DNA of 64,000 nt from an uncultured cyanobacterium (GTDB lineage: Bacteria; Cyanobacteriota; Cyanobacteriia; Cyanobacteriales; Nostocaceae), in the NCBI GenBank assembly GCA_963706595.1, contig OY970166.1, positions 4,544,001 through 4,608,000 on the forward strand, given 5' to 3'. Numbering within the stretch: position 1 is the stretch's first letter; each line of letters begins with the position of its first letter. The translations under genes and the position numbers were made by a program. Shown one piece after another: positions 30,621-43,478 of this stretch. The notes under the pieces are model-generated. The model did not search any database. It had not been told where the DNA came from and saw only the letters and a program-made list of their open reading frames with translations.

Positions 30621-30977
30621 ATGAGCTGGACTAAAGTTCTTGCAGCTGATGCACTTGCGCCAAATGGCAGACAAGTGGTAAAAGTTGGCACACGAAAAAT
30701 TCTGCTTGTCAACCACGAAAGTCAACTTTATGCTGTCGATAATACCTGCCCTCATTTAAAAATGCCCATGAAAAATGGGAAAATTACCGAAAGTGGGGCA
30801 ATTGTTTGTCCTATACATCGTAGTGCTTTTGACTTAAGTACTGGGGAAGTACAAGACTGGTGTCCTTGGCCGCCTGTTGTAGGTAAAGTACTTTCAAAGA
30901 TTTCACCGGAGAAGAAACTACCAGTGTTCCCTGTGCGTGTGGAAGAAGGTAGTATTTGGATTGATTTAGAGGAATAG
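30621..30977 (+). CDS. Rieske [2Fe-2S] ferredoxin-like protein
   Basis: CPH...CPIH ligands. Confidence 0.92.
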   Translation: MSWTKVLAADALAPNGRQVVKVGTRKILLVNHESQLYAVDNTCPHLKMPMKNGKITESGAIVCPIHRSAFDLSTGEVQDWCPWPPVVGKVLSKISPEKKLPVFPVRVEEGSIWIDLEE

Positions 30978-31162
30978 TAGCCTCTAGTAAAAGAGGCAGG
31001 GGAGCAGGGTGTGGGGGGCAGGGGGGAAGACTGAGACGGAGCTTGTACCCCTTCCCCTCTGCCTCTTCGGTGAGGCTAGCAAAAGCGATCGCTTGCCCTC
31101 TTTCCCTTCTAAGCCAGTAAATTTAGTCATCACATCAGGTTGCTATAGTGAATCCCCAATAG

Positions 31163-31381
31163 TCAATCAGCAGACTTAGCAGTTTTTATACCCTCAAGCT
31201 TCTCTATCCGGTAATTCTGGATTTCATTCTGCGCCACCACTTCACTTCTAAGTAATTTGATTTCAGATGTCATATCAGAAACACGGTTGCCCATACTAAA
31301 ACCACCAGTAATCAAATAGAGTCCTGATTGGGTGGTTATGGTCAAGACTGTGATCAGCATGGCTAATCGTTCGGCGGTCAT
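31163..31381 (-). CDS. Small hydrophobic plus coiled-coil protein of the element
   Basis: 72 aa; hydrophobic N-half, coiled-coil C-half; overlaps the stop of the upstream gene by 4 bp. Confidence 0.7.
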   Translation of the reverse strand: MTAERLAMLITVLTITTQSGLYLITGGFSMGNRVSDMTSEIKLLRSEVVAQNEIQNYRIEKLEGIKTAKSAD

Positions 31382-31701
31382 GGTAAAACCTTTTTAATTA
31401 TTAAGCTGGTTCTTGCCAGGTAAAAATTAGGGAAGAATTGCAGCTTAAATTTACCCGGCTGGGGAAAATCAAAGAACTGGTCGCCAAACCTCAAAATTTG
31501 AGAATTGGCAACCGGCTTATTTGGTAAGTCCCACAAAATTTGCTCAATCCTGCCAGCACTTTTGTAATTTCTGGTAGGTCGAGCCTTGAGAACAACAATT
31601 AATTTGCTCTCATCTTCAGTAAATAAATATGGAATGAGTACAGAATTTAATGGTTTTAAATCAAATCGATACTCATTACCAAACACGAACTGAGTTTCCA
31701 T
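31378..31701 (-). CDS. Hypothetical protein of the element
   Basis: 107 aa; abuts both neighbours in a compact operon. Confidence 0.75.
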   Translation of the reverse strand: METQFVFGNEYRFDLKPLNSVLIPYLFTEDESKLIVVLKARPTRNYKSAGRIEQILWDLPNKPVANSQILRFGDQFFDFPQPGKFKLQFFPNFYLARTSLIIKKVLP

Positions 31702-32118
31702 TTACTTTTTAGCAAGTGAATAAGTTCTACCATGCGGCGAGACGAAACTAGTAGGCTTTTTACTTGCGTTTCCCAAGAATTTCTTAATACTACTAATGGT
31801 AGCGCTGGCAGGAACGGGGACACTTAAGTATTTAACTGCCGTTCCCTTTTTGCTAGCTGCCGATGAATTAGTTCCAGGTAAAGGAACTTTAATGCGTTTA
31901 GCGCCAACGCTCCCTCGAACAGCAATCGTTGACTGTTTTTTTGAGCCTTTAGCTGCCTTTCTAGTAACAGTTGCGTCAGGGACGATTTTAAAGCCCAGTT
32001 TTTCAGCTACAGACCGCAGCATATAAACGTATACCGATTTCGCCCCTTGCCCTCGTCCTTGTCCGGATTCAAATAAAACCGTTGCTCGTGGTCCAATCTT
32101 TTTTCGTTGTGTTGCCAT
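31702..32118 (-). CDS. Highly basic (Lys/Arg-rich) protein, possibly DNA-binding
   Basis: 138 aa, rich in K/R/S/A; GGAG RBS upstream. Confidence 0.75.
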   Translation of the reverse strand: MATQRKKIGPRATVLFESGQGRGQGAKSVYVYMLRSVAEKLGFKIVPDATVTRKAAKGSKKQSTIAVRGSVGAKRIKVPLPGTNSSAASKKGTAVKYLSVPVPASATISSIKKFLGNASKKPTSFVSPHGRTYSLAKK

Positions 32119-32147
32119 TCAATTGCTCCAATGCTTAGTAATGGTTT

Positions 32148-33167
32148 TTAGAGATAATCAATTGCGATGATCACAACGTCACCATTGCCGGCGGCTTCAG
32201 AGGTAAAAGGAATATTTGCGCTGATAGTGGCGACTCCAGCTTCCAGGTCGAATTGGACCTGAACGTTGTCCGGCTGGGAATCAGTGGGAACCACAAGTTT
32301 TTCACTAGCAGCCAACAAAGTAGAAATTTCAATGAAGGCTTCCATGATAGTACTAGACTTTAGATCACCGCCGCCATTGACAAAACCAGAATAAGTAGAA
32401 CCCAAGTAATCTTGTGCAACAATTTTGGTAGAACCATCTGTTTGTGCAGTTGCAATAATAGGAATTGTTGCTGCAACTGAAATAGTTCCAGTGTCGAACG
32501 AAACGGTGGTAGCTAGGTTTCTTCGTGGGGTTAGTCCTGGGTTAGCTCCATTCCGAGCTTGTTCTGCCGCATCCATAGCCCTGGCCACTTCAAAGAATGC
32601 CGATGGAATTTGTGTAGCGTTTAAAGTTCCCGCAGTTCCTGGGTCAAATGTACTCATTCGTTCCTCGCTGTAAAAAATGTAGTAACCGTATTTGTAATCA
32701 GTTGTAGCCCGGAATTGTCCCAAATTGGCGGGGACAAACCAATCTAGATTCTTTGGGCTTAAGGTCGAAGAACCCACCGCAGTTAAAGAGACTGAACCGG
32801 GAATAAATAACTTATTCTGCCGAAATACTAAATTAAATGCGGATTTCGAGAAAAAATCTTGAATTGGTGGTGGTACATTATCAATTACTTCCTGCCAGTC
32901 AATGCTTGCAGTTTTTCCATTGGGGAATGTAATCGATGGGGCAGACTGGCTTTTGTTAGAACTTTTAGTTTTGACTATAGGAGTCTTAGGGAGTAAAATA
33001 TACCAATTTCGTTTCCATTTGTAAGCTATAGCTATCCCTTTCTTTAGCAGTCTCTTGAATAGCTTTAATAAATAAGTGTCTGCAAAATTGGTTATTTTAG
33101 CGAGGTCAGATAATTTAATTGCTAAATGCCCATTGATAACATAAATTTCAAATAGTTCTACCCTCAT
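32148..33167 (-). CDS. Element protein: basic N-terminal part in frame with an internally duplicated, structural-protein-like C-terminal domain (internal start at about 32657)
   Basis: 339-aa ORF; GAGG RBS precedes internal MSTFDPG; two repeats each ending in DYL. Confidence 0.7.
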   Translation of the reverse strand: MRVELFEIYVINGHLAIKLSDLAKITNFADTYLLKLFKRLLKKGIAIAYKWKRNWYILLPKTPIVKTKSSNKSQSAPSITFPNGKTASIDWQEVIDNVPPPIQDFFSKSAFNLVFRQNKLFIPGSVSLTAVGSSTLSPKNLDWFVPANLGQFRATTDYKYGYYIFYSEERMSTFDPGTAGTLNATQIPSAFFEVARAMDAAEQARNGANPGLTPRRNLATTVSFDTGTISVAATIPIIATAQTDGSTKIVAQDYLGSTYSGFVNGGGDLKSSTIMEAFIEISTLLAASEKLVVPTDSQPDNVQVQFDLEAGVATISANIPFTSEAAGNGDVVIIAIDYL

Positions 33168-35920
33168 GATTTCTTTTTATCTTTATCTCTCAAAGACAAA
33201 CTCCAAGTAGGCATATTATCTTTCTGCCCAGTTTTGAAGAAATGCACTCTAACCGGAACTACACGAACTTGTTTGTAGACTCCAGGGCGTTCGCCAATCT
33301 TGGGCGGTTGAATGTCTTTTAGGTATTTAGGGGCAATGTATGCTTTGAAAGCATTAATTACCCTCGTACATTCCGTCTTACTTTTCGCATTGATAATTAC
33401 TTTTGAATTATCATTAAGAACCAGAATTCCTTCAAAGTTTCCTTTTTCATATTGAGGAAATTTAGGCTTGAAATCCTTTCCTTTATTGTAGTGAGGAATT
33501 GTTATAGCCCATCGACTGCGACCAATTTTACCATCTTCAAAAACCTCAGCGTATTGAATGACTAACTGCGGACGCTGAAAAACTCGCACTTGCCACCACT
33601 CAGGAGTCACTAAATAGGAATCTTCATTATTTTTAGCTTCACATAATTTTGTGTTAGCCTTAGCCATCTCGGCATAAGAATTGCGAACTTTATTTATTTC
33701 ATTTCCTGTGGAGGTTGCCAAAACTTTGATTGTTATTTCCTTAGTTTCAGGTGTCCATACACCATCGCTTTCAGTACAAAGAATAGTATCAACTTTTATC
33801 TCTACCCAAGAAATATTAGAGGTGCATCGCTGTACTTGAGTACTAGTTTGATTCACAACATTAGTCAAACTATTGACTTGGTTATTAGTTGCATTGGTAA
33901 CGTTGGTCAGATTAGTGACTTGGTTATTAGTTGCATTGGTAACGTTGGTCAGATTAGTGACTTGGTTATTAGTTGCATTGGTAACGTTGGTCAGATTAGT
34001 GACTTGGTTATTAGTTGCATTGGTAACGTTGGTCAGATTAGTGACTTGGTTATTAGTTGCATTGGTAACGTTGGTCAGATTAGTGACTTGGTTATTCGTT
34101 GCGTTGGTAACGTTGGTCAGATTAGTGACTTGGTTATTAGTTGCATTGGTAACGTTGGTCAGATTAGTGACTTGGTTATTCGTTGCGTTGGTAACATTGG
34201 TCAAGTTGCTGACTTGGTTATTAGTTGCGTTGGTAACATTGGTCAAGTTGGTGACTTGAGTACCAAGTTTTGTAATATTTTGATTTGCATTATTAACTAT
34301 ATTTCCAGTATTTATAACTGTTGGTCTGAGAGCGGTGACAGCACTAGCAGTAGCCAATGAAGTAGTATTTAGTGCCACAGCCTGACCTTGTAAAGCTGCT
34401 ACTTGTCCCTGTAAAGCTGCTACTTGTCCTTGCAAAGCAAATACTTGAGTTGTGACAGGAACGATGGCCGCAGTTTGCGCAACCGTAGCTAGTGGCGATG
34501 CCTGATACCACATATTTAAGCCTTCAGGAAAGCATTTACCATTTGTCATTTCCTGGCATAATGCTTCCTGCATTGCGCTAGGCAATGCGTCTGTTTTTAG
34601 CCGAATATTATTGCTCAATACCTCTACGTTGGTTATTTTTGATTGCAAAACACCCAAAGCACCAAATATACCAGCTAATTCTGCCATATTAAATTTGCCA
34701 TCCTTACCACGCTGACCAGTCAAACCACGCTGACCAGTCAAACCACGTTCTCCAGTCAAACCACGCTGACCAGTCAAACCACGTTCTCCAGTCAAACCAC
34801 GCTGACCAGTCAAACCACGCTGACCAGTCAAACCACGCTGACCAGTCAAACCACGCTGACCAGTCAAACCACGTTCTCCAGTCAAACCACGCTGACCAGT
34901 CAAACCACGCTGACCAGTCAAACCACGTTCTCCAGTCAAACCACGCTGACCAGTCAAACCACGCTGACCAGTCAAACCACGCTGACCAGTCAAACCACGT
35001 TCTCCAGTCAAACCACGCTGACCAGTCAAACCACGTTCTCCAGTCAAACCACGCTGACCAGTCAAACCACGCTGACCAGTCAAACCACGCTGACCAGTCA
35101 AACCACGCTGACCAGTCAAACCACGTTCTCCAGTCAAACCACGCTGACCAGTCAAACCACGCTGACCAGTCAAACCACGTTCTCCAGTCAAACCACGCTG
35201 ACCAGTCAAACCACGCTGACCAGTCAAACCACGCTGACCAGTCAAACCACGTTCTCCAGTCAAACCACGCTGACCAGTCAAACCACGCTGACCAGTCAAA
35301 CCACGTTCTCCAGTCAAACCACGCTGACCAGTCAAACCACGCTGACCAGTCAAACCACGCTGACCAGTCAAACCACGCTGACCAGTCAAACCACGCTGAC
35401 CAGTCAAACCACGCTGACCAGTCAAACCACGTTCCCCCTGAAGTCCTCGCGGTCCGGGGATAGCTTTTGCTCTTAGTGCCGATTCAGCCGTAGCTAATGC
35501 TTGATTGGCAGTATTTTTAATGGGTAAAAGTAATCCCAGCACGCGAGAAATATCAGCCCCAAGCGCTGATAAACCACGCTCTACAGCATCAATTCTCGCC
35601 CCTAGTACTTGCAGTGCTGCAATTGATGCCAAGATTCCCGTAATAGTAAATGCTAATGCGGCGACCTTAGTCGCGGCGGCGGCGGCGGCGGCGGCGGCTC
35701 CCTTGGCGATTGCTTCTATAGCGAGAAATTTTATTGCCAGCCCTGCGATCGCAGCTGCTATTAATTGCTCGGTACGAGGCATGATTAGAGCCTCAGCCCC
35801 GGCTATGGAAGATTGGATAATTTGAGGTTTTTCACTCTTCAGAACATACTTTCCATCCAGGGCGGCGATCGCCGCACTCAAAGCAGCAATTTCGCCCGAT
35901 ATTTCGTTACAAGAACTCAC
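33164..35920 (-). CDS. Collagen-like / coiled-coil fibre protein (spike or tail-fibre-like)
   Basis: Ala-rich hydrophobic N-terminus, 40 x GLTG(Q/E)R, ALQGQVA repeats, about 9 x NQVTNLTNVTNATN, globular basic C-domain. Confidence 0.85.
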   Translation of the reverse strand: MSSCNEISGEIAALSAAIAALDGKYVLKSEKPQIIQSSIAGAEALIMPRTEQLIAAAIAGLAIKFLAIEAIAKGAAAAAAAAATKVAALAFTITGILASIAALQVLGARIDAVERGLSALGADISRVLGLLLPIKNTANQALATAESALRAKAIPGPRGLQGERGLTGQRGLTGQRGLTGQRGLTGQRGLTGQRGLTGQRGLTGERGLTGQRGLTGQRGLTGERGLTGQRGLTGQRGLTGQRGLTGERGLTGQRGLTGQRGLTGERGLTGQRGLTGQRGLTGQRGLTGQRGLTGERGLTGQRGLTGERGLTGQRGLTGQRGLTGQRGLTGERGLTGQRGLTGQRGLTGERGLTGQRGLTGQRGLTGQRGLTGQRGLTGERGLTGQRGLTGERGLTGQRGLTGQRGKDGKFNMAELAGIFGALGVLQSKITNVEVLSNNIRLKTDALPSAMQEALCQEMTNGKCFPEGLNMWYQASPLATVAQTAAIVPVTTQVFALQGQVAALQGQVAALQGQAVALNTTSLATASAVTALRPTVINTGNIVNNANQNITKLGTQVTNLTNVTNATNNQVSNLTNVTNATNNQVTNLTNVTNATNNQVTNLTNVTNATNNQVTNLTNVTNATNNQVTNLTNVTNATNNQVTNLTNVTNATNNQVTNLTNVTNATNNQVTNLTNVTNATNNQVNSLTNVVNQTSTQVQRCTSNISWVEIKVDTILCTESDGVWTPETKEITIKVLATSTGNEINKVRNSYAEMAKANTKLCEAKNNEDSYLVTPEWWQVRVFQRPQLVIQYAEVFEDGKIGRSRWAITIPHYNKGKDFKPKFPQYEKGNFEGILVLNDNSKVIINAKSKTECTRVINAFKAYIAPKYLKDIQPPKIGERPGVYKQVRVVPVRVHFFKTGQKDNMPTWSLSLRDKDKKKS
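33875..34260. repeat. 42-bp coding tandem repeat, about 9 copies
   Basis: GACTTGGTTATTAGTTGCATTGGTAACGTTGGTCAGATTAGT unit, encoding a 14-aa double heptad. Confidence 0.95.
34709..35428. repeat. 18-bp coding tandem repeat, 40 copies (collagen Gly-X-Y)
   Basis: ACGCTGACCAGTCAAACC / ACGTTCTCCAGTCAAACC units; 720 bp. Confidence 0.97.
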
Positions 35921-36277
35921 TCATTTAATCCCCGCGATTTGTGCGCGCAATGCCGACAATTCATTGAAAATACGCTTGCAATCCAAGCAGCAATCGCCGC
36001 AGTCCAGGTTATTAGGCGGGCAAGGCGATTCACACTCTGTACAGCTACCAGAGGTATTTCCGGATATTGGAGCGCTAGTTCTTGCTTCGGATAAGCTCTG
36101 AGTACCGCTCCGATAGTAATACCAATGAGCCACTTGCCGGACTCCATCTACTATCAGATGGTATCCCAGTCCATTGAAGGAGTAAGATGCGGCATATCCA
36201 CAAGCAAAATGCTCGTAATAAGCATCATTATTGACACCTTGTCCTGAAAATCGCCAGCATTTCTTAGCCGCCGCCAT
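35921..36277 (-). CDS. Cys-rich hypothetical protein of the element
   Basis: CTECESPCPPNNLDCGDCCLDC followed by a short coiled coil; translationally coupled to both neighbours. Confidence 0.72.
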   Translation of the reverse strand: MAAAKKCWRFSGQGVNNDAYYEHFACGYAASYSFNGLGYHLIVDGVRQVAHWYYYRSGTQSLSEARTSAPISGNTSGSCTECESPCPPNNLDCGDCCLDCKRIFNELSALRAQIAGIK

Positions 36278-36630
36278 TAGTAATCATTCGGATCGCGAAC
36301 GTTGTCCGTGGATGGTTTCCACAAGTTAATCGTTATGGGGTCGTTTCTGTATTCAATTGCGGGTTCACCCCGTTGGGTGATATTTGAAAATCCATCTTCA
36401 AGCACAATTGACTGCTCAAGATTAGTCTCAAAGTTAGCTGGTGATAAATAAGCTTTAGCACCCAAAACAATACTGACTAAATGTCCTTCAGCTGTTGCCG
36501 TTTCTGGAGTCGTCAACCCAGATGCCACTAACGCACTATCGGGAATGAATAACCCTGCCTCTGGTGCTGGGTGTGTCACCGCTAAACGTACTGCCCCAAT
36601 GCCAAAAATTTGAGGGATGGTTGGTTCCAT
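36277..36630 (-). CDS. Hypothetical protein, first gene of the leftward structural-type operon
   Basis: 117 aa; stop overlaps the next start (TAATG). Confidence 0.75.
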   Translation of the reverse strand: MEPTIPQIFGIGAVRLAVTHPAPEAGLFIPDSALVASGLTTPETATAEGHLVSIVLGAKAYLSPANFETNLEQSIVLEDGFSNITQRGEPAIEYRNDPITINLWKPSTDNVRDPNDY

Positions 36631-36671
36631 GAATCTTTATCAATATTGTTAATACATAATTAATAATTCAA

Positions 36672-36755
36672 TACATCAATGATGTAAACTTCCACTTTTA
36701 TGTAAAACTGGAACAATTATTAATACGCTCAAACTATTGGCACTACTGGGTTTGA
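36672..36755. promoter_or_regulatory. Cluster of inverted repeats upstream of the tyrosine recombinase (candidate res/operator site)
   Basis: TACATCA-a-TGATGTA (36672-36686); TTCCACTTTTA-tg-TAAAACTGGAA (36690-36713); TCAAAC...GTTTGA. Confidence 0.5.
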
Positions 36756-36831
36756 TGGCTACACTAATGATATCTGAAATATCAAATATTCCAGATTAAC
36801 CAATTAGGATGGTTAAAGATGAAGTGATTTT

Positions 36832-37413
36832 ATGAAAAACAACAGGCATGGACAAGCTGAAATTTTAACTAATTCGGAATTTTATAAAATTCGCCAACAC
36901 ATTAAAAGTAAAAAATATAAATTACTTCTTGACCTGGCGTGGTACACGGGGGAGAGGTGGGGCGCAATTACAAAATTAAAAGTTGAAGATGTCTATAATT
37001 CTGATGGTAGCCCTAGATGTGAGATTACTTTTCGTGCTGCCACACGCAAAGCCGCGCCAGACGGAGTAAGAAAAACTAGACAGTTACCAGTTCATACTGT
37101 TCTGGAAGAGTCGTTATTATCCTACAAGCCGGAATTTAACTCTGTTTGGTTGTTCCCGTGTCGGGATGGGTTGAAGCCGATTAGCTTCAAATGGGCAGAT
37201 TTGATTTTTCGCACTGCCGTAGAAAATGCTGGACTAGCCACCAAGGGGATTAGTACCCATAGCACCCGCCGGACTTTCATTACCAAACTGCACAGGCAAG
37301 GCACAGATTTGTACACAATAAAGAAAATTACAGGACACCAAGATTTTAAATCACTAGAAAAATACGTAGAAATTGATTGCGATCGCGTCAAAGGCGCTAT
37401 CAACACATTGTGA
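36832..37413 (+). CDS. Short tyrosine recombinase (catalytic domain only, resolvase-like)
   Basis: TGER, HSTRRT, TGHQ, KY: the R-H-R-H-Y residues are present; 193 aa. Confidence 0.92.
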   Translation: MKNNRHGQAEILTNSEFYKIRQHIKSKKYKLLLDLAWYTGERWGAITKLKVEDVYNSDGSPRCEITFRAATRKAAPDGVRKTRQLPVHTVLEESLLSYKPEFNSVWLFPCRDGLKPISFKWADLIFRTAVENAGLATKGISTHSTRRTFITKLHRQGTDLYTIKKITGHQDFKSLEKYVEIDCDRVKGAINTL

Positions 37414-37495
37414 TATATTTGTACTAGTAAACTGGCTGATAAGATGCACCCCTGAATGAGGAAATATGGTCTAGCGCGTAGACCATACCTTTTTT

Positions 37496-38365
37496 TCAAA
37501 GCTTGTAACCATTCATGCCAAAACCACCGCGAATGAAGTTTTTAATTTCACTCGGCGATTTACCCTGCGCAATCGCACTCTCAACCATCTGCTTTCTATC
37601 AATGGCCATCGGATTTTCATAATTTCCCCCAGGAATATGGATGTGATGAATCCCACGCACATAGTAGCAATACCGGAAATACCAGTGCTTTACACCTGAA
37701 CGCTTAACATAATATTCCTCAACCCATTGGTTATTACGTTGTTCTGGAAGAGTAGGAGTGTGCGGTTGTAAATCTTGTTCTGGAAGTTCTGGAAAAGGAA
37801 GAGTGAGTTCTATAAAATCACCATCGTTAAAGTCTGACTCTTCCAGAACATCGTCCAAAGCACGGGACATCATTTCATCCCGGTCAGGTGGCGGAACTCT
37901 CTCACCTGGGTAAGTTTCATTTATGAACTCAATCGCGTCAAGTTCAGCATCCAAATGGGTGTTGTAGTTGCCCTGGAAAGTTCCACAGAGCAGGTAGTCA
38001 TCGTAGACAGTCCATTGAATTTGGTTGTTAGGTAATTTAAAAAACTTGCAAGTATAACCACGGTAATTCTTCTGCCACCGATGCTTTTCATCAGATGTCG
38101 TAGTGTCTACATTAGGTTCTTCCAGAACACTGAATCCTTCTGGCATCGGAAACCGTGACTGCCAATCACTAAACCGCAATTCAAACTCTGCAAGTGAATC
38201 ACAATCGTCTGGCTCTGGTGGTTCTTGGGAATCGTCGTAAAAAAGTGTGAGTTGACCGTTCTCATCTCTTCCAGAAAACTCAGCGTCTAGTATTACTTCA
38301 TCCCAAAAAGGATCATGAACAGTCTTGACGGTGGTGTACTGCTCAACGTCGAATAATAGTGTCAT
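37496..38365 (-). CDS. Hypothetical acidic protein of the element
   Basis: 289 aa; GQLTLF motif; C-terminal WYFRYCY...HIHIPGGN domain. Confidence 0.75.
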   Translation of the reverse strand: MTLLFDVEQYTTVKTVHDPFWDEVILDAEFSGRDENGQLTLFYDDSQEPPEPDDCDSLAEFELRFSDWQSRFPMPEGFSVLEEPNVDTTTSDEKHRWQKNYRGYTCKFFKLPNNQIQWTVYDDYLLCGTFQGNYNTHLDAELDAIEFINETYPGERVPPPDRDEMMSRALDDVLEESDFNDGDFIELTLPFPELPEQDLQPHTPTLPEQRNNQWVEEYYVKRSGVKHWYFRYCYYVRGIHHIHIPGGNYENPMAIDRKQMVESAIAQGKSPSEIKNFIRGGFGMNGYKL

Positions 38366-38368
38366 TGG

Positions 38369-39256
38369 TTATTGGTTATTGGTTATCAGTCGTTGGGGAT
38401 ATCGCTGCATCATTTCTTTGAGGTCGTGGGGATTACCGTCATTGTCATACACCGTCACCCCTCCTGAAATAGCACTGACAATTCCTTGTTGCCTCGCCCA
38501 ATTGAACCAGATGCTCAATTCAGAAGTCACTGTGTTCTTAGGCTTCTCCCCAGTTTTGCAGCTGTTGATGAATAAGCCTGTGGGATTGCTGCACCACCCT
38601 TCATTAACTGCTTCTTTTACACGAGCTACAGCACTGGCGACATTGCCCCAGTATTTCTTGATTACACCCAAGCAAGGTTCTGGGTTAATCCTCAGTGTTC
38701 TTAATTCAATGCAAACCTGCCCAACTTCAGCTTTAGTAGGCGCTGCGGGTGCAATTACCTCATGCTCTTGTTCAATTTCTTGTTCATGATCATCAATGAA
38801 AGTTTCCTCAACAGCAGTGTTGTTTTCTTTTAAACTACTTAAGTTAGTTTTATATGTTGCGACATTTCCAGCAGGTACTTGTGGAATAATTGGCACGTCT
38901 GTGTGAAATATTTCGCATCGTTGAGAATCTACATCTGGCGCGATTCTTTCAAGATTCAACCTGTACTGACTGGCAGTATCTTTGGGAAAGCAGTGTGACG
39001 GCTGCTCATCCAAAATCCCATCAAAGACCAATTCTTTGATGTGCCGGCTGATGGTTGCCCGGCAGTAACCCAGGATGTCCGCTAGGTCTTCAAAGGTAAC
39101 TCTCACCCATTCGTGCTTGTAGTAAAGTTTGCCGTCAAACCAGGACAAGATAGCCGCCTTGCACTTCTGGCGACGGTTGAATGTGGCTAAAAATTCTCTG
39201 AGAATGTTGATAGGGGTATTAATTTCGCCAAAGGTGGCGGAGGTAAAGTTTGTCAC
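38369..39256 (-). CDS. Putative replication initiator with a winged HTH
   Basis: TFEDLADILGYCRATISRHIKELV..GIL HTH; C-terminal NPTGLFINSCK motif typical of phage/plasmid Rep C-termini; GGAGG RBS before the GTG. Confidence 0.65.
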   Translation of the reverse strand: MTNFTSATFGEINTPINILREFLATFNRRQKCKAAILSWFDGKLYYKHEWVRVTFEDLADILGYCRATISRHIKELVFDGILDEQPSHCFPKDTASQYRLNLERIAPDVDSQRCEIFHTDVPIIPQVPAGNVATYKTNLSSLKENNTAVEETFIDDHEQEIEQEHEVIAPAAPTKAEVGQVCIELRTLRINPEPCLGVIKKYWGNVASAVARVKEAVNEGWCSNPTGLFINSCKTGEKPKNTVTSELSIWFNWARQQGIVSAISGGVTVYDNDGNPHDLKEMMQRYPQRLITNNQ

Positions 39257-39324
39257 TGCTAATACCTCCGTGCTAATTGAGTCGAAAATGTGGGAATACT
39301 CATGAGGTAGCTACTGGAGTTGAG

Positions 39325-39594
39325 ATGGGTGATAAATTTGGTTTAAGCCCCAGTGATGTTGTGTCTATGGATGAAGACAAAAGCATTGTTGGAAGCACGT
39401 TTAAAGTCAAGGAAATGCTTCTTAGCCTAGCCGATAGGTCAATCAACGATGACTTTATTACTCAGTGGATAGGGACAGGAGTAGAGTGTGAGGTTTTGAT
39501 CAGTGGGCAGGACTGGCGGAAGGGCAAAGTGAGAATTTCTCTGGAGTTCATTCCTGACCAGCCACTGTCACCACTTGATGATCTGCGGGAATAA
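39325..39594 (+). CDS. KGK domain protein
   Basis: GVECEVL...WRKGKVRISLEF.PD..SPLDDLR. Confidence 0.88.
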   Translation: MGDKFGLSPSDVVSMDEDKSIVGSTFKVKEMLLSLADRSINDDFITQWIGTGVECEVLISGQDWRKGKVRISLEFIPDQPLSPLDDLRE

Positions 39595-39646
39595 CTGAAA
39601 TAGTCACCACGAAAAAACCGTCCTGACCTGTGGTAGGTGGACGGTT

Positions 39647-39979
39647 CTATTCAGAATCTTGAATTTCGGAAATCTGCTTTAACTCTTCAATTCTTTGTCT
39701 CAGAAGGCTTGCTTGTTGTTCATGATATGCCAGCTGTTTGTCAGCCTCACAAATTAGCTGGCTGAGAAGTTTCCCAGCGATTCCTTCAACCGACTCCCCT
39801 CTGAGGACAGATATATCTGACTTGTGGCTATCTTCTCCACAAGCTCTGATCTGGTAAGTCCCATGCTCTGTGCTAACTCCTGAAAAAGTTCCCAAGCATC
39901 GGGATTCACTTTTAAGCTTACCCCCTTGGTTTCCCGTCCTTTGGGCCGTCCCGTTCTCGCCATAGTAATTGTCCTGCAT
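39647..39979 (-). CDS. Possible overlapping coiled-coil ORF
   Basis: 110-aa ORF with C-terminal coiled coil, overlapping the RHH gene in another frame; start uncertain. Confidence 0.4.
   Translation of the reverse strand: MQDNYYGENGTAQRTGNQGGKLKSESRCLGTFSGVSTEHGTYQIRACGEDSHKSDISVLRGESVEGIAGKLLSQLICEADKQLAYHEQQASLLRQRIEELKQISEIQDSE
39754..39963 (-). CDS. Ribbon-helix-helix (CopG-like) repressor
   Basis: KGVSLKV..DAWELFQELAQSMGLTRSELVEKIA; AGGA RBS. Confidence 0.8.
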   Translation of the reverse strand: MARTGRPKGRETKGVSLKVNPDAWELFQELAQSMGLTRSELVEKIATSQIYLSSEGSRLKESLGNFSAS

Positions 39980-39997
39980 AATATTCTGCTTTTAATT

Positions 39998-40085
39998 ATT
40001 GCATATCCAAAAATCCATTAATTAATATTGACACAGGATATCTGGATATGCAATAGTAAGATTGTTGGATTTTTGGATATCCAAT
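39998..40085. promoter_or_regulatory. Divergent promoter region with operator repeats
   Basis: 20-bp inverted repeat with 19/20 match: ATTGCATATCCAAAAATCCA (39998-40017) / TGGATTTTTGGATATCCAAT (40066-40085); third half-site 40043-40055; TTGACA at 40028. Confidence 0.75.
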
Positions 40086-40427
40086 AGCTCCCACCCCACA
40101 CCGGGGATTACCACACGGAGCAAGCACCCACGCCTAGAACTTGCGTGGAACAACCTTGACCAATGACTAATATCAGCGCTTGCGCTTCACCAAAGCGCTG
40201 CAAACTTGTTCTTTCATGGAGGGAAACTTAGACGACAATCATCAAAAAAACCAGGGATAAACACTCTTTTTTCATTTCCCCAGTAAAGGCTAATTACTGG
40301 GGTTTCTCCCTAACACAAGCCAATTTGTCACTGAATTTATAAGGTTTTCTTGGTGGTGTTGCGGCATCACCAAGTTTCTCATAATGTCTGCGTTAATGTC
40401 TGCATTGCACATATAACCATCAAAACT

Positions 40428-40586
40428 ATGAGCTATAAACAAGCCTCACCCTGGGCTGTCTTTAGAGTAGAAGATTTTGGAAATCTTTTACTAACAAGAT
40501 TCCGCAAGCGTAGCGACGCTGATGAATATGCAAAACTTCTCAGAAACAACACACCCTACAAAATTGAGGTGGTATTCGACGTATGA
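40428..40586 (+). CDS. Small hypothetical protein
   Basis: MSYKQASPWAVFR...RFRKRSDADEY...EVVFDV; ATGA overlap with the next gene. Confidence 0.7.
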   Translation: MSYKQASPWAVFRVEDFGNLLLTRFRKRSDADEYAKLLRNNTPYKIEVVFDV

Positions 40587-40867
40587 CACAAAAATCACTA
40601 TTACCCTACGATGGCAATTACGCTTTAATTCACAAGCGGACGCTACTGGTTAACAGTATGGTTTTGACTGCGATGACAGAATTTATCTCGCAAAATTCAT
40701 CTATCACAAGCGAACAACTAGCTCTACTGTTTGGTGAAACTGCTAATAAAATTGTTGCTGCTATGTCCGATGAAACAGTCAATGCCAACGCTTGCGGCTT
40801 AATTTCAAAGTCCATCATAAACAATGGCGTTTCTTCATTTGTTGAATACCATTCCAGTAAAGAATAA
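40583..40867 (+). CDS. Hypothetical protein
   Basis: 94 aa; GAGG RBS; coupled to neighbours. Confidence 0.65.
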   Translation: MTQKSLLPYDGNYALIHKRTLLVNSMVLTAMTEFISQNSSITSEQLALLFGETANKIVAAMSDETVNANACGLISKSIINNGVSSFVEYHSSKE

Positions 40868-40871
40868 CATC

Positions 40872-41240
40872 ATGAAAATTAAAACTATCACTTATCAACG
40901 AGTTCTCAACCTGGGGAATTATGAAAGCAAGCGGTTAGACATGACTATCGAAGTTGACGCAAATCTTGAATTTGCAGAAGAAGAATGCTCCATCCTCATG
41001 GAATCTGTAGAGCGTAAAATTCGAGAAGAATCTGAGGCTTTAATTCTCAATGAAATTAGAGATGCCAGAAAAAAACTGCGTGAAGTTAACAAGGAAATTG
41101 AAGCGGGTAAGCAACTTTTAGCAGAAATAGGAAAGGAATTAAACCCGGACATCGAGCCAGGACTTTCACCTTATGAAATAGCAGAAATCGACCGTAAAGT
41201 TAGAAAGGAGGCATATCTTAACCCTGACGAAGACTTTTAA
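40872..41240 (+). CDS. Phage-type hypothetical coiled-coil protein
   Basis: MKIKTITYQRVLNLGNYESKRL N-terminus followed by a coiled coil. Confidence 0.75.
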   Translation: MKIKTITYQRVLNLGNYESKRLDMTIEVDANLEFAEEECSILMESVERKIREESEALILNEIRDARKKLREVNKEIEAGKQLLAEIGKELNPDIEPGLSPYEIAEIDRKVRKEAYLNPDEDF

Positions 41241-41319
41241 GATTTAGGCGATCGCACAGTTTGGAGGAGTGCGATCGCTTTTCTTCCTTGCCAGGATAAT
41301 GAAACAAATATAACTTAAA

Positions 41320-41555
41320 ACCGCCTGAACGAGCCGGACTAACTCACCGGCGAAACGTGAGCGCTCACGTCGCGGACTGAGTTCGCAGCACATCAACTTA
41401 GGGCTTTGTTAGTGAATTAAGCTCTTGTGGCTTTCCCATCTTCGTAAGCTCGGTTGATGTGTTTTTGTGTCCCCAGTGTTTGCAGCACTGGAAGCTTTGA
41501 GACTGAATTAGGCTCTTTGGCCTTTGGGTGATTCACAAGCTGTAAGACACAATTC
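41320..41555 (+). ncRNA. IS110 bridge RNA: 5' hairpins, target-binding loop (about 41389-41461), donor-binding loop (about 41466-41551)
   Basis: Two similar stem/internal-loop/stem modules whose variable segments match the element junctions; candidate promoter TTGCCA(41288)-17 bp-TAACTT(41311); ends approximate. Confidence 0.85.
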
Positions 41556-41583
41556 ACACACCTACTCTAAGGATGAAAACTGA

Positions 41584-42771
41584 ATGACTAGAATTGTTGG
41601 GTTGGATGTTTCCAAGTCAAGTGTTTCGTGCTGTCTATTGGAGGAAAAGCCAAGGAATCCAAGAGAATTTTACTATGAATACCCCTTCAAAAAGTTTCAA
41701 AGTGATAAATTTGGATTATTGGCATTAATGGCATTGCGGCCAGAAGTTGCAATTCTTGAACCGACGGGAGTGAATTACTCCAAATTCTGGACAGAACATT
41801 TATCTCGTGCCGGGGTAGAAGTTCGCTTCGTAGGACACAAAGAACTCAGGAGTTACCGCGAAAATCACTTGGGACTGCCAGATAAAGATGATGATGCCGA
41901 CTCGTTGGCGCTGGCTTGTTATCAGTTCGACTATGGAAAAGATTTGAGCCGGTTCGTCCGGGTACGCGATCGCTTAATTTCCCGAACGAGGGAAGCAGTG
42001 CTGCGGCTTAGTCATCTTAACCGAATACAATCCCCCATCATCAACCGCATCCGTCAGGATTTGGCATGGCAGTTCCCAGAAGTTGCGCTTGTCCGTTCAA
42101 TTCGGTGTTCTGGAAGAGTGCCTTTACTTTGGGGATGGCTAGCTGGTCAGCGTGAAAGTAAAAAATATGATCGCATTTACGCCACCACCGCAGGATTAGG
42201 ATTAACCGATTCGGTAAGGTTTCACGCGCAGCGCATTTGTAGCTTACAGGCAGAAGAGCAAATTTTAGAAGATGAACTAGCAGAAATTCTCATAGATGAA
42301 CGGTTCACTCGTTACCGTGATATTTTCGCAAATTTCCAGTTTGGGGAGAGACTGCAAGCTGTGATTCTCTCCCAAATTTACCCCTTAGAAAATTTCTTGG
42401 GTGAGGATGGTAAACCAGAAATCAAAATCCGCAAAGGTAGGAAATCTGGTAAACCAACCAAACGCCACCTGTCACTAAGGCGATTTCAGAAAGCTTTGGG
42501 TGTAGCGCCTTCTCAAGAATCAAGCGGCGATATTTCTAAATCTAAAGTTTCCGGTGGATCGGCTTTGTGCCGTCGCGCCCTTTGGCAGTGGGTTTTTAGT
42601 GCAGTTGAACCTGCCAAACGCCGCACGAATCCCATGTTAAAAGAATTGGGAGAATTTCTTGATACCGAGAAATTAGCAGGCAAACCAGTCAAACTGGTAC
42701 GAATGCGAGTAGCTGTTAAAGCTGTAAAGCTGTTATTTAAAATGTTGACTAGTAACGTTATCAGTCAATAA
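41584..42771 (+). CDS. IS110-family (DEDD) bridge recombinase
   Basis: VGLDVSK (D), LEPTG (E), KDDDAD (D,D), C-terminal domain GVAPSQESSG with the catalytic-type Ser; intact 395 aa. Confidence 0.93.
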   Translation: MTRIVGLDVSKSSVSCCLLEEKPRNPREFYYEYPFKKFQSDKFGLLALMALRPEVAILEPTGVNYSKFWTEHLSRAGVEVRFVGHKELRSYRENHLGLPDKDDDADSLALACYQFDYGKDLSRFVRVRDRLISRTREAVLRLSHLNRIQSPIINRIRQDLAWQFPEVALVRSIRCSGRVPLLWGWLAGQRESKKYDRIYATTAGLGLTDSVRFHAQRICSLQAEEQILEDELAEILIDERFTRYRDIFANFQFGERLQAVILSQIYPLENFLGEDGKPEIKIRKGRKSGKPTKRHLSLRRFQKALGVAPSQESSGDISKSKVSGGSALCRRALWQWVFSAVEPAKRRTNPMLKELGEFLDTEKLAGKPVKLVRMRVAVKAVKLLFKMLTSNVISQ

Positions 42772-42872
42772 CACAATGGTGGCGTAGGGAGTCGGTACAA
42801 TACACGTAACAATTACGCCGCCACTATTTTATTAGACTGAAGATGGCAAAGTTATCAGTGGAAAATTAAATC

Positions 42873-43478
42873 ATGCTCGAAAATCGAGACTATACACTCA
42901 TTATCGACAAAAGCGGTAGTATGGCTACCCCAGATCAGAAAGGTGGTAGAACTAGATGGGTATCAGCACAAGAATCTACCCTAGCCTTAGCGAGTAAGTG
43001 CGAGCAATTTGATCCAGATGGCATCACTGTATATTTATTTTCTGGTAGATTCAAGCGCTACGATAATGTTACAGCCGCTAAAGTAACACAAATCTTTAAA
43101 GAAAATGACCCCTCTGGTTCTACAGATTTAGCAGGTGTGTTGAAACACGCCACGGATGATTACTTTCAACGTAAGAATGCGGGTCAAACGAAGCCCAATG
43201 GTGAAATTATTTTGGTAGTTACTGACGGCGAACCGGATGACCGTAAAGCGGTAATGAAGGTAATTATTGAAGCTTCTCGCCGGATGGATAATGATGAGGA
43301 ACTAGGTATTTCCTTCATTCAAGTTGGTACAGATGCACAAGCTACTCGCTTTCTGAAAGTGTTAGATGATGACCTCCAAGGTGCTGGAGCAAAATTTGAT
43401 ATCTGCGACACAATTACAATGGATGATATGGAGGATTTAAGTTTATCGGAAGTGCTACTAAATGCCATTACGGACTAG
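42873..43478 (+). CDS. Single-domain vWA protein
   Basis: IDKSGSM MIDAS, VTDGEPDD, FLKVLDDDL. Confidence 0.9.
   Translation: MLENRDYTLIIDKSGSMATPDQKGGRTRWVSAQESTLALASKCEQFDPDGITVYLFSGRFKRYDNVTAAKVTQIFKENDPSGSTDLAGVLKHATDDYFQRKNAGQTKPNGEIILVVTDGEPDDRKAVMKVIIEASRRMDNDEELGISFIQVGTDAQATRFLKVLDDDLQGAGAKFDICDTITMDDMEDLSLSEVLLNAITD

Follow-up and report, generated by a model that had tools for sequence, protein, structure and literature searches.

Satellites of the PICI and cf-PICI types are about 10-15 kb in size and carry an integrase at one end, divergent regulators and primase or replication genes. Small genomes with few structural genes are also found in the inoviruses, the double-jelly-roll phages and the leviviruses, and the leviviral coats are intertwined alpha/beta dimers. 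In Anabaena sp. 90, compact elements of 11-13 kb without terminase or capsid genes, present in chromosomal and plasmid copies, are called prophage remnants in the sections of the report available to us (PMC3542288).

Elements of the IS621/IS110 group encode a DEDD recombinase of 300-460 aa, share a short common core and form a circular intermediate, and the bridge RNA upstream of the gene has two loops, of which the target loop is variable and the donor loop conserved (sections available of Durrant et al. 2024, PMC11208160). According to the same sections, the circle junction of simple IS110 elements forms a promoter that drives the bridge RNA. Many bacterial hammerhead ribozymes lie near prophage integrase genes, with a function that the accessible part of the source describes as unclear (Perreault et al. 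2011, PMC3088659). The type I hammerheads treated there have a core of CUGANGA and GAAA, three stems, a GUC site and a tertiary contact of the pseudoknot type.

Here we describe an element whose family has, in common with the IS621/IS110 group, a DEDD recombinase, a predicted bridge RNA with target and donor loops, a short core and joined ends of the circular type and, in common with the type I hammerheads, the core, three stems, the GUC site and a putative pseudoknot-type contact. The element resembles the PICIs and cf-PICIs in its size, its integrase at the end, its divergent regulators and its replication genes. The parts appear from their sequences to be of known kinds, whereas the combination matches no system found in our literature search. 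No description of the element was returned by that search, save possibly for the Anabaena sp. 90 'prophage remnants', with which it shares the traits listed above. The two may be related; the comparison is by description, and the part of the text at hand mentions neither collagen nor IS110 (PMC3542288).

Insertion site and distribution

The initial annotation of the window, i.e. the whole stretch of 64,000 nucleotides analysed here, singled out a compact operon of seven genes on the minus strand. This operon forms the late arm of a larger insertion of 11,689 bp (positions 31153-42841). The annotated coordinates hold for the operon but take in under half of the element; its recombinases and a non-coding RNA lie outside them. 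The insertion is flanked by a Rieske gene and a vWA gene, which adjoin each other, i.e. the element is absent, in all 10 of 10 genomes from the same genus.

Nine empty sites were used to place the junctions. At attL (31149..31152, plus strand) the host target flank is followed by TGAA and the element end TCCCC, and at attR (42838..42841, plus strand) the element end TAGAC is followed by TGAA and the host target flank. The crossover core is GAA, and left junctions read N-GAA, in which the preceding base follows the host and the guide. The core is repeated at both junctions in the window; the joined-end form was seen in relatives only, none for the window copy. One of the 'empty' Rieske-vWA sites (L004, genome G006) terminates with the right-end motif of the element plus TGAA, which looks like a scar left by an earlier insertion at the same target.

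Measured from junction to junction, the elements span 9.2-18.3 kb and enclose 10-20 genes. A simple IS110 insertion sequence is ruled out by this size, which exceeds a recombinase gene with short non-coding ends. The host genome contains a single copy, and relatives were identified in Nostoc, Anabaena, Tolypothrix, Calothrix and similar genomes. Of 201 genomes from the host family, 78 contain relatives of gene 1 of the operon, and the clade of IS110 recombinases likewise occurs in 78. In a sample of 251 genomes taken across the phylum, gene 1 was found in 22, and the host family accounted for 17 of these.

The IS110 recombinase and its predicted bridge RNA

A 395-aa DEDD recombinase of the IS110 family is encoded at 41584..42771 on the plus strand. 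Its frame is intact and it matches NF051857 with 532 bits (cut-off 180); PF02371 scored above and PF01548 just below the cut-off, and the D, E, D, D and S motifs are present. In the predicted fold of the 340 bp ahead of the gene (z -2.96), two long arms are interrupted by internal loops, and a bridge RNA with four guide segments placed in these loops is predicted at 41372..41560 (plus strand). One arm, with the putative left and right target guides at 41408-41416 and 41435-41443, contains segments that match the host flanks, the left one directly and the right one as its reverse complement. The other arm, with the putative left and right donor guides at 41498-41507 and 41526-41535 (all four on the plus strand), contains segments that match the right and left element ends. 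This arrangement of arms and guides is that described for IS110-group bridge RNAs in the sections available of PMC11208160.

Several features set the locus apart from the IS621/IS110 group as covered in those sections. Its ends enclose 9-18 kb and 10-20 genes, and the RNA is located about 10 kb from the element end, a distance over which a junction promoter cannot drive it directly. Moreover, a hammerhead motif stands at the start of the RNA, and in place of CT the core is GAA, embedded in TGAA; this core often also serves as the stop codon of the recombinase. In L068-L076, L080 and L085-L089, the stop codon is the TGA of the core and the gene ends at the element boundary. Just past the end of the recombinase in L088 (positions 288-514) there is a HEARO RNA, of the IscB/omega type of element.

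The agreement between target guides and flanks was quantified in 44 recombinase loci, comprising the window, 38 loci near a gene 1 match and five earlier ones, of which two duplicates and one locus without a donor guide were excluded to leave 41. Junctions were called from the donor motifs only, not from the target guides. Where the right guide could be parsed and the right junction was integrated (33 loci), the right target guide matched its own flank over a mean of 4.39 consecutive bases and over at least four bases in 25 loci, whereas permuted pairs gave a mean of 0.50 and a maximum of 1.33 in 10,000. The left target guide matched a mean of 3.05 bases in the 20 loci with a left junction (at least three in 14 of these), against a mean of 0.57 and a maximum of 1.75 for permuted pairs. 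Guides below these thresholds numbered 8 of 33 on the right and 6 of 20 on the left. The guides included 32 distinct right and 18 distinct left sequences, and the related genomes from which they come are not independent samples.

These results bear on the explanation that the locus is a decayed prophage remnant that happens to lie next to an unrelated solo IS110 element. The Anabaena sp. 90 elements received the name of remnants, in the part of the source available (PMC3542288), for loci of the same general description, and deletion derivatives exist within the family (L096 and L097). However, the donor guide has its match at the opposite end of the element, 10 kb away from the recombinase, and the target guides agree with the sequences that flank the element as a whole; the frames are intact and the gene order is kept across genera. 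The guide test largely refutes this explanation, which we consider very improbable. From the sequence logic shown by the guides, we infer with high confidence that the whole element is mobilised by an RNA-guided IS110 recombinase.

A second set of 20 further IS110 recombinase loci was picked without reference to a gene 1 match. Thirteen were accompanied by a short recombinase and families of the structural module, two by the short recombinase alone and one by a homologue of the last operon gene alone; two had nothing and two were too short. The recombinase clade therefore mostly serves large elements and seldom moves alone.

The host flank at the left junctions of L068, L072 and L090 is similar to the donor end, and the left target guide of L068 is nearly identical to the donor guide. 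With such similarity, elements could insert into each other's ends.

A hammerhead motif at the start of the guide RNA

A type I hammerhead motif is located at 41320..41385 on the plus strand, with a predicted cut after the GUC at 41371. The order of CUGANGA, stem, GAAAC, stem, GUC and lastly the strand that completes stem I was recovered in 36 of the 41 loci, and the core is absent in the other five. The motif begins the RNA, 233-335 bases ahead of the recombinase gene. Counted per sequence, 33 of 34 distinct copies have the consensus core spacing, stem II is at least 4 bp long in 33 and stem III in 32, and these stems are maintained through 16 different sequences for stem II and 23 for stem III. 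Loop II is complementary to the 3' tail over at least four bases in 32 of the 34. The copy in the window reads CUGAACGA, which is one base longer than the CUGANGA core; it may be inactive through the extra base, or mis-assembled. Two tandem hammerhead motifs precede a single recombinase gene in L104 (positions 2603 and 2776).

Unlike the bacterial type I hammerheads described previously (PMC3088659, accessible part), the motif is fused to the guide RNA of a recombinase, which suggests a function, and it scores below the Rfam thresholds: no hammerhead exceeded these in positions 30900-43000 of the window or in 10 loci. In the family, the hammerhead probably processes the guide RNA, a role that we assign with less assurance to the window copy. 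A ribozyme at the 5' end would be needed because the RNA and the promoter at the circle junction lie about 10 kb apart, with the cargo in between. As for the literature, the one preprint found treats hammerhead, IS110 and bridge RNA as separate topics in the portion available, and the words ribozyme, passenger and cyanobacteria are absent from the accessible text of a 2026 review (PMC13604230).

Early and middle genes

Three small early genes of 78, 94 and 138 aa (40350..41240, plus strand) read towards the non-coding RNA and the IS110 gene. On the minus strand before them lies a small regulator of 69 aa (39754..39963) with weak NCBIfam matches to LexA-regulated and RelB-type proteins, and the overlapping palindromes at 39997-40086, between the regulator and the early genes, are likely to be an operator region. 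A protein with a KGK-domain match is encoded at 39277..39594 (plus strand). The 295-aa HTH protein at 38369..39256 (minus strand) is weakly similar to phage replication initiators of the O type (phrog_678, E 5.4e-5), and the adjacent 289-aa protein (37496..38365, minus strand) belongs to a family common to 10 related loci, with no match in the libraries.

A short tyrosine recombinase of 193 aa (36832..37413, plus strand) consists of the catalytic domain only. Between it and gene 1 is a conserved, imperfect inverted repeat (36684..36718), the central motif of which occurs in 33 of 39 spacers and which is a candidate resolution site of the res/lox kind. The short recombinase is probably the resolvase of circle multimers, a role favoured because it is present in all 23 complete IS110-type elements, because it lies beside the conserved repeat and because its place is taken by a serine resolvase in L169.

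The late operon

The operon was annotated correctly with respect to its position, compactness and kinds of genes: seven ORFs of 117, 118, 918, 339, 138, 107 and 72 aa abut or overlap on the minus strand and are translationally coupled. Their order is kept in relatives across genera and is therefore not due to chance. Searches of the seven proteins against Pfam, PHROGs and NCBIfam put a name only to the collagen/coiled-coil fibre, and none of the tested proteins resolved to a known non-viral family.

The Cys-rich, fibrous and very basic proteins noted earlier are borne out by their composition. Gene 2 (35921..36277; 118 aa) encodes 9 Cys and has a conserved Cys-rich C-terminus and a variable N-terminus. 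Gene 3 (33164..35920) encodes the 918-aa collagen and coiled-coil fibre, with 85 Gly-X-Y triplets at residues 156-410, then a 14-residue tandem repeat, and a conserved C-terminal domain of about 190 aa. Gene 5 (31702..32118; 138 aa) encodes 28 Lys/Arg against 3 Asp/Glu and is a candidate for a DNA-condensing core protein. Gene 6 (31378..31701; 107 aa) belongs to no family, and gene 7 (31163..31381; 72 aa), the last in the operon, encodes a hydrophobic stretch and a coiled coil and might be holin-like.

Gene 4 (32148..33167; 339 aa) has a basic N-terminal half followed by two tandem units of about 80 aa, modelled as helix-strand-strand-strand. It had been described as internally duplicated, which is true of its last 169 residues only. 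Each half of the tandem matches a family of free-standing proteins of about 80 aa, with probabilities of 99.5% and 99.4%, and a tandem profile collected 219 representatives at E 0.001, including single units, tandems and long forms of about 340 aa. In 15 long forms the tandem begins at an internal Met-Ser codon pair, and just upstream of this start several relatives, like the window, have a GAGGA-like stretch, which makes it likely that both a long and a short product are made. In the window, translation probably also starts at the internal ATG at 32657, which is preceded by GAGGA, to yield a short form of 169 aa. A stretch coding for YKYGYY (32658-32690, minus strand) is conserved before the internal start, also in L049 where the upstream protein is unrelated, and may be a DNA or RNA signal.

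The first gene of the operon, gene 1 (36277..36630; 117 aa), yielded a confident model (pLDDT 95). Its self-association score was 0.78 and that of the best control 0.00; among the reference cases, 20 of 30 known pairs scored at least as high, as did 1 of 23 single chains. Dimer runs agreed in at least 91% of contacts with a pLDDT of at least 84, and the predicted complex is a two-fold, intertwined homodimer with few contacts to further copies. On the basis of these models, gene 1 is the best candidate for the major structural subunit. Leviviral coats and the modelled gene 1 product are both intertwined alpha/beta dimers, which we regard as a lead only.

Structure prediction, as proposed in the initial annotation, was carried out for gene 1 and the gene 4 repeat; neither of these two folds could be assigned to a known coat, and no capsid was assigned. 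Sequence profiles identified no terminase, portal or HK97 capsid, and profile searches against the coats of inoviruses, double-jelly-roll phages and leviviruses gave no match.

The slots of the operon are fixed and their occupants exchangeable. Among the 23 complete elements, the gene 4 repeat is present in 8 and a 275-aa protein in 14, never together. In nine other elements, picked by IS110, slot 1 holds a different family of about 100 aa. The candidate subunits are not universal, a point against the viral reading; the presence of gene 1 in 23 of 23 complete elements reflects the selection of these loci by gene 1. Two copies in one genome (L096 and L097) have the first gene fused to the C-terminal domain of the fibre, with loss of the fibre itself.

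Joined ends, exchangeable modules and CRISPR targeting

Joined element ends were found in L045, L066/L067, L130, L132/L133, L134, L163 and L168/L169, those of L066/L067 and L132/L133 representing a 15.4-kb tandem. L169 is a contig of 9,929 bp with a terminal repeat of 123 bp, and together with L148 and L162 it makes three contigs of 9.9-11.2 kb with exact terminal repeats, although collapsed tandem arrays can also assemble as circular contigs. L148 and L162 lack the IS110 gene; these circular members of 11 kb have no recognised integrase and contain a DnaQ-type exonuclease. Elsewhere the late module is accompanied by full-length tyrosine integrases and by D5, VapE or DnaB primase-helicases, and it is also present on two ParAB plasmids. 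The modules for integration and replication are therefore exchangeable, as in temperate phages.

A search for CRISPR spacers, also proposed earlier, yielded matches. The host genome contains 122 spacer-like sequences, and four spacers from true CRISPR arrays, presumably of type I-D, match members of the family at 28/31 to 31/34 bases. The targets include gene 1 of a relative and gene 6 of the window element (31384-31414, 28/31 bases). The 78 spacers that passed a length filter gave 3 matches, as compared to 0 in each of 20 shuffles. Near the operon end, a GH108 lysozyme or an M15 peptidase is encoded in L074, L083, L084, L054 and L169, while no endolysin was found in the window element. The circle and tandem junctions, the spacers, the endolysins and the integrase and ParAB versions fit a small temperate virus.

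Alternatively, an RNA-guided integrative element could carry the operon as cargo, and the operon could encode something other than a virus, for example an adhesin or a tube through which DNA passes between cells, with no DNA-filled particle formed. This would agree with the similarity of gene 3 to collagen-like adhesins, with the plasmid-borne versions and with the lack of a recognised virion hallmark. It accounts less well for the very basic gene 5 product, the endolysins of some members, the spacers against genes 1 and 6 and the divergent layout of early and late arms, all of which better fit a viral cycle, and we consider it unlikely.

Packaging and the nature of the element

In accordance with the initial annotation, profiles found no tailed-phage hallmark, and no ATPase, of the Walker-A kind or otherwise, was recognised in the window element. 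Nor does this element contain a morphogenesis ATPase of the Zot or FtsK/HerA type, in which it differs from the inoviruses and double-jelly-roll phages. A Walker A motif is present inside 3 of the 23 complete elements. In a minority of elements, including L098, L100, L103, L113 and L132, a conserved P-loop ATPase of 380-420 aa is encoded just upstream of the IS110 gene; the ATPase of about 400 aa beside IS110 in some relatives gave sub-threshold AAA matches only. The lack of a conserved packaging ATPase leaves genome packaging without explanation, which counts against an element with its own virion.

An RNA-guided satellite would obtain its capsid or packaging motor from a helper cyanophage, and the late genes would then be fibres, adaptors or size-changing factors. 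The early region is PICI-like in its regulators, primase-helicase variants and integrase, and the size of 9-18 kb, the exchangeable late-gene slots and the missing ATPase of the window element are as expected for a satellite. In contrast to the PICIs and cf-PICIs, however, no terminase, portal or HK97 capsid was recognised, the integrase of this branch appears to be RNA-guided and there is a long collagen fibre. The late operon, with this fibre and in some members lysis enzymes, takes up about half of the element, and to our knowledge the known interference modules need less than that. A satellite is a minority reading, if a slightly better one than a non-viral cargo.

We favour, with a probability of roughly 0.55, a virus-like element that is small and temperate, resides in filamentous cyanobacteria and builds its own particle. 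This reading draws on the layout, the fibre, the basic protein, the lysis genes, the circles and the CRISPR targeting. The earlier suggestion of a virion module from a small virus or satellite agrees with a discrete, mobile, CRISPR-targeted family in which an endolysin ends the operon in some relatives; no gene was identified as a capsid. A more specific version, for which we see about even odds, is that these are small temperate viruses of cyanobacteria forming a new group, whose coat has a fold not represented in the structure libraries that were searched. In one branch of the group, an IS110 bridge recombinase would have been domesticated as a reprogrammable, RNA-guided integrase, its guide RNA being matured by a built-in hammerhead.

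The life cycle of such a virus-like element may be pictured as follows. An early transcript would read through the small genes into the non-coding RNA and the IS110 recombinase gene, and the hammerhead would cut this transcript and free the 5' end of the bridge RNA. The donor loop would pair with the joined element ends and the target loop with the chromosomal site, and recombination at the GAA core would insert or excise the entire element. The circle would replicate from the HTH initiator, with multimers resolved by the short tyrosine recombinase at the inverted repeat. From the divergent late operon, which would end with membrane or lysis genes, a particle would be assembled: gene 1 and the gene 4 repeat would supply its small dimeric alpha/beta subunits and the basic protein its core, with the collagen protein as a long fibre.

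Implications

If this model is true, bridge recombinases act naturally as integrases of replicating elements of 9-18 kb, which could be retargeted through a few changes of guide bases, akin to the co-option of CRISPR by Tn7. The bacterial hammerheads found close to integrase genes would acquire a concrete function that can be tested. For genome engineering, cyanobacteria included, a bridge RNA that trims itself and a clade of recombinases that handle large cargo would be directly useful. Should particles be found, the combination would represent a new kind of small virus, and with gene 1 relatives in 78 of 201 genomes it would be a common virus group of heterocyst-forming cyanobacteria that viral catalogues have missed.
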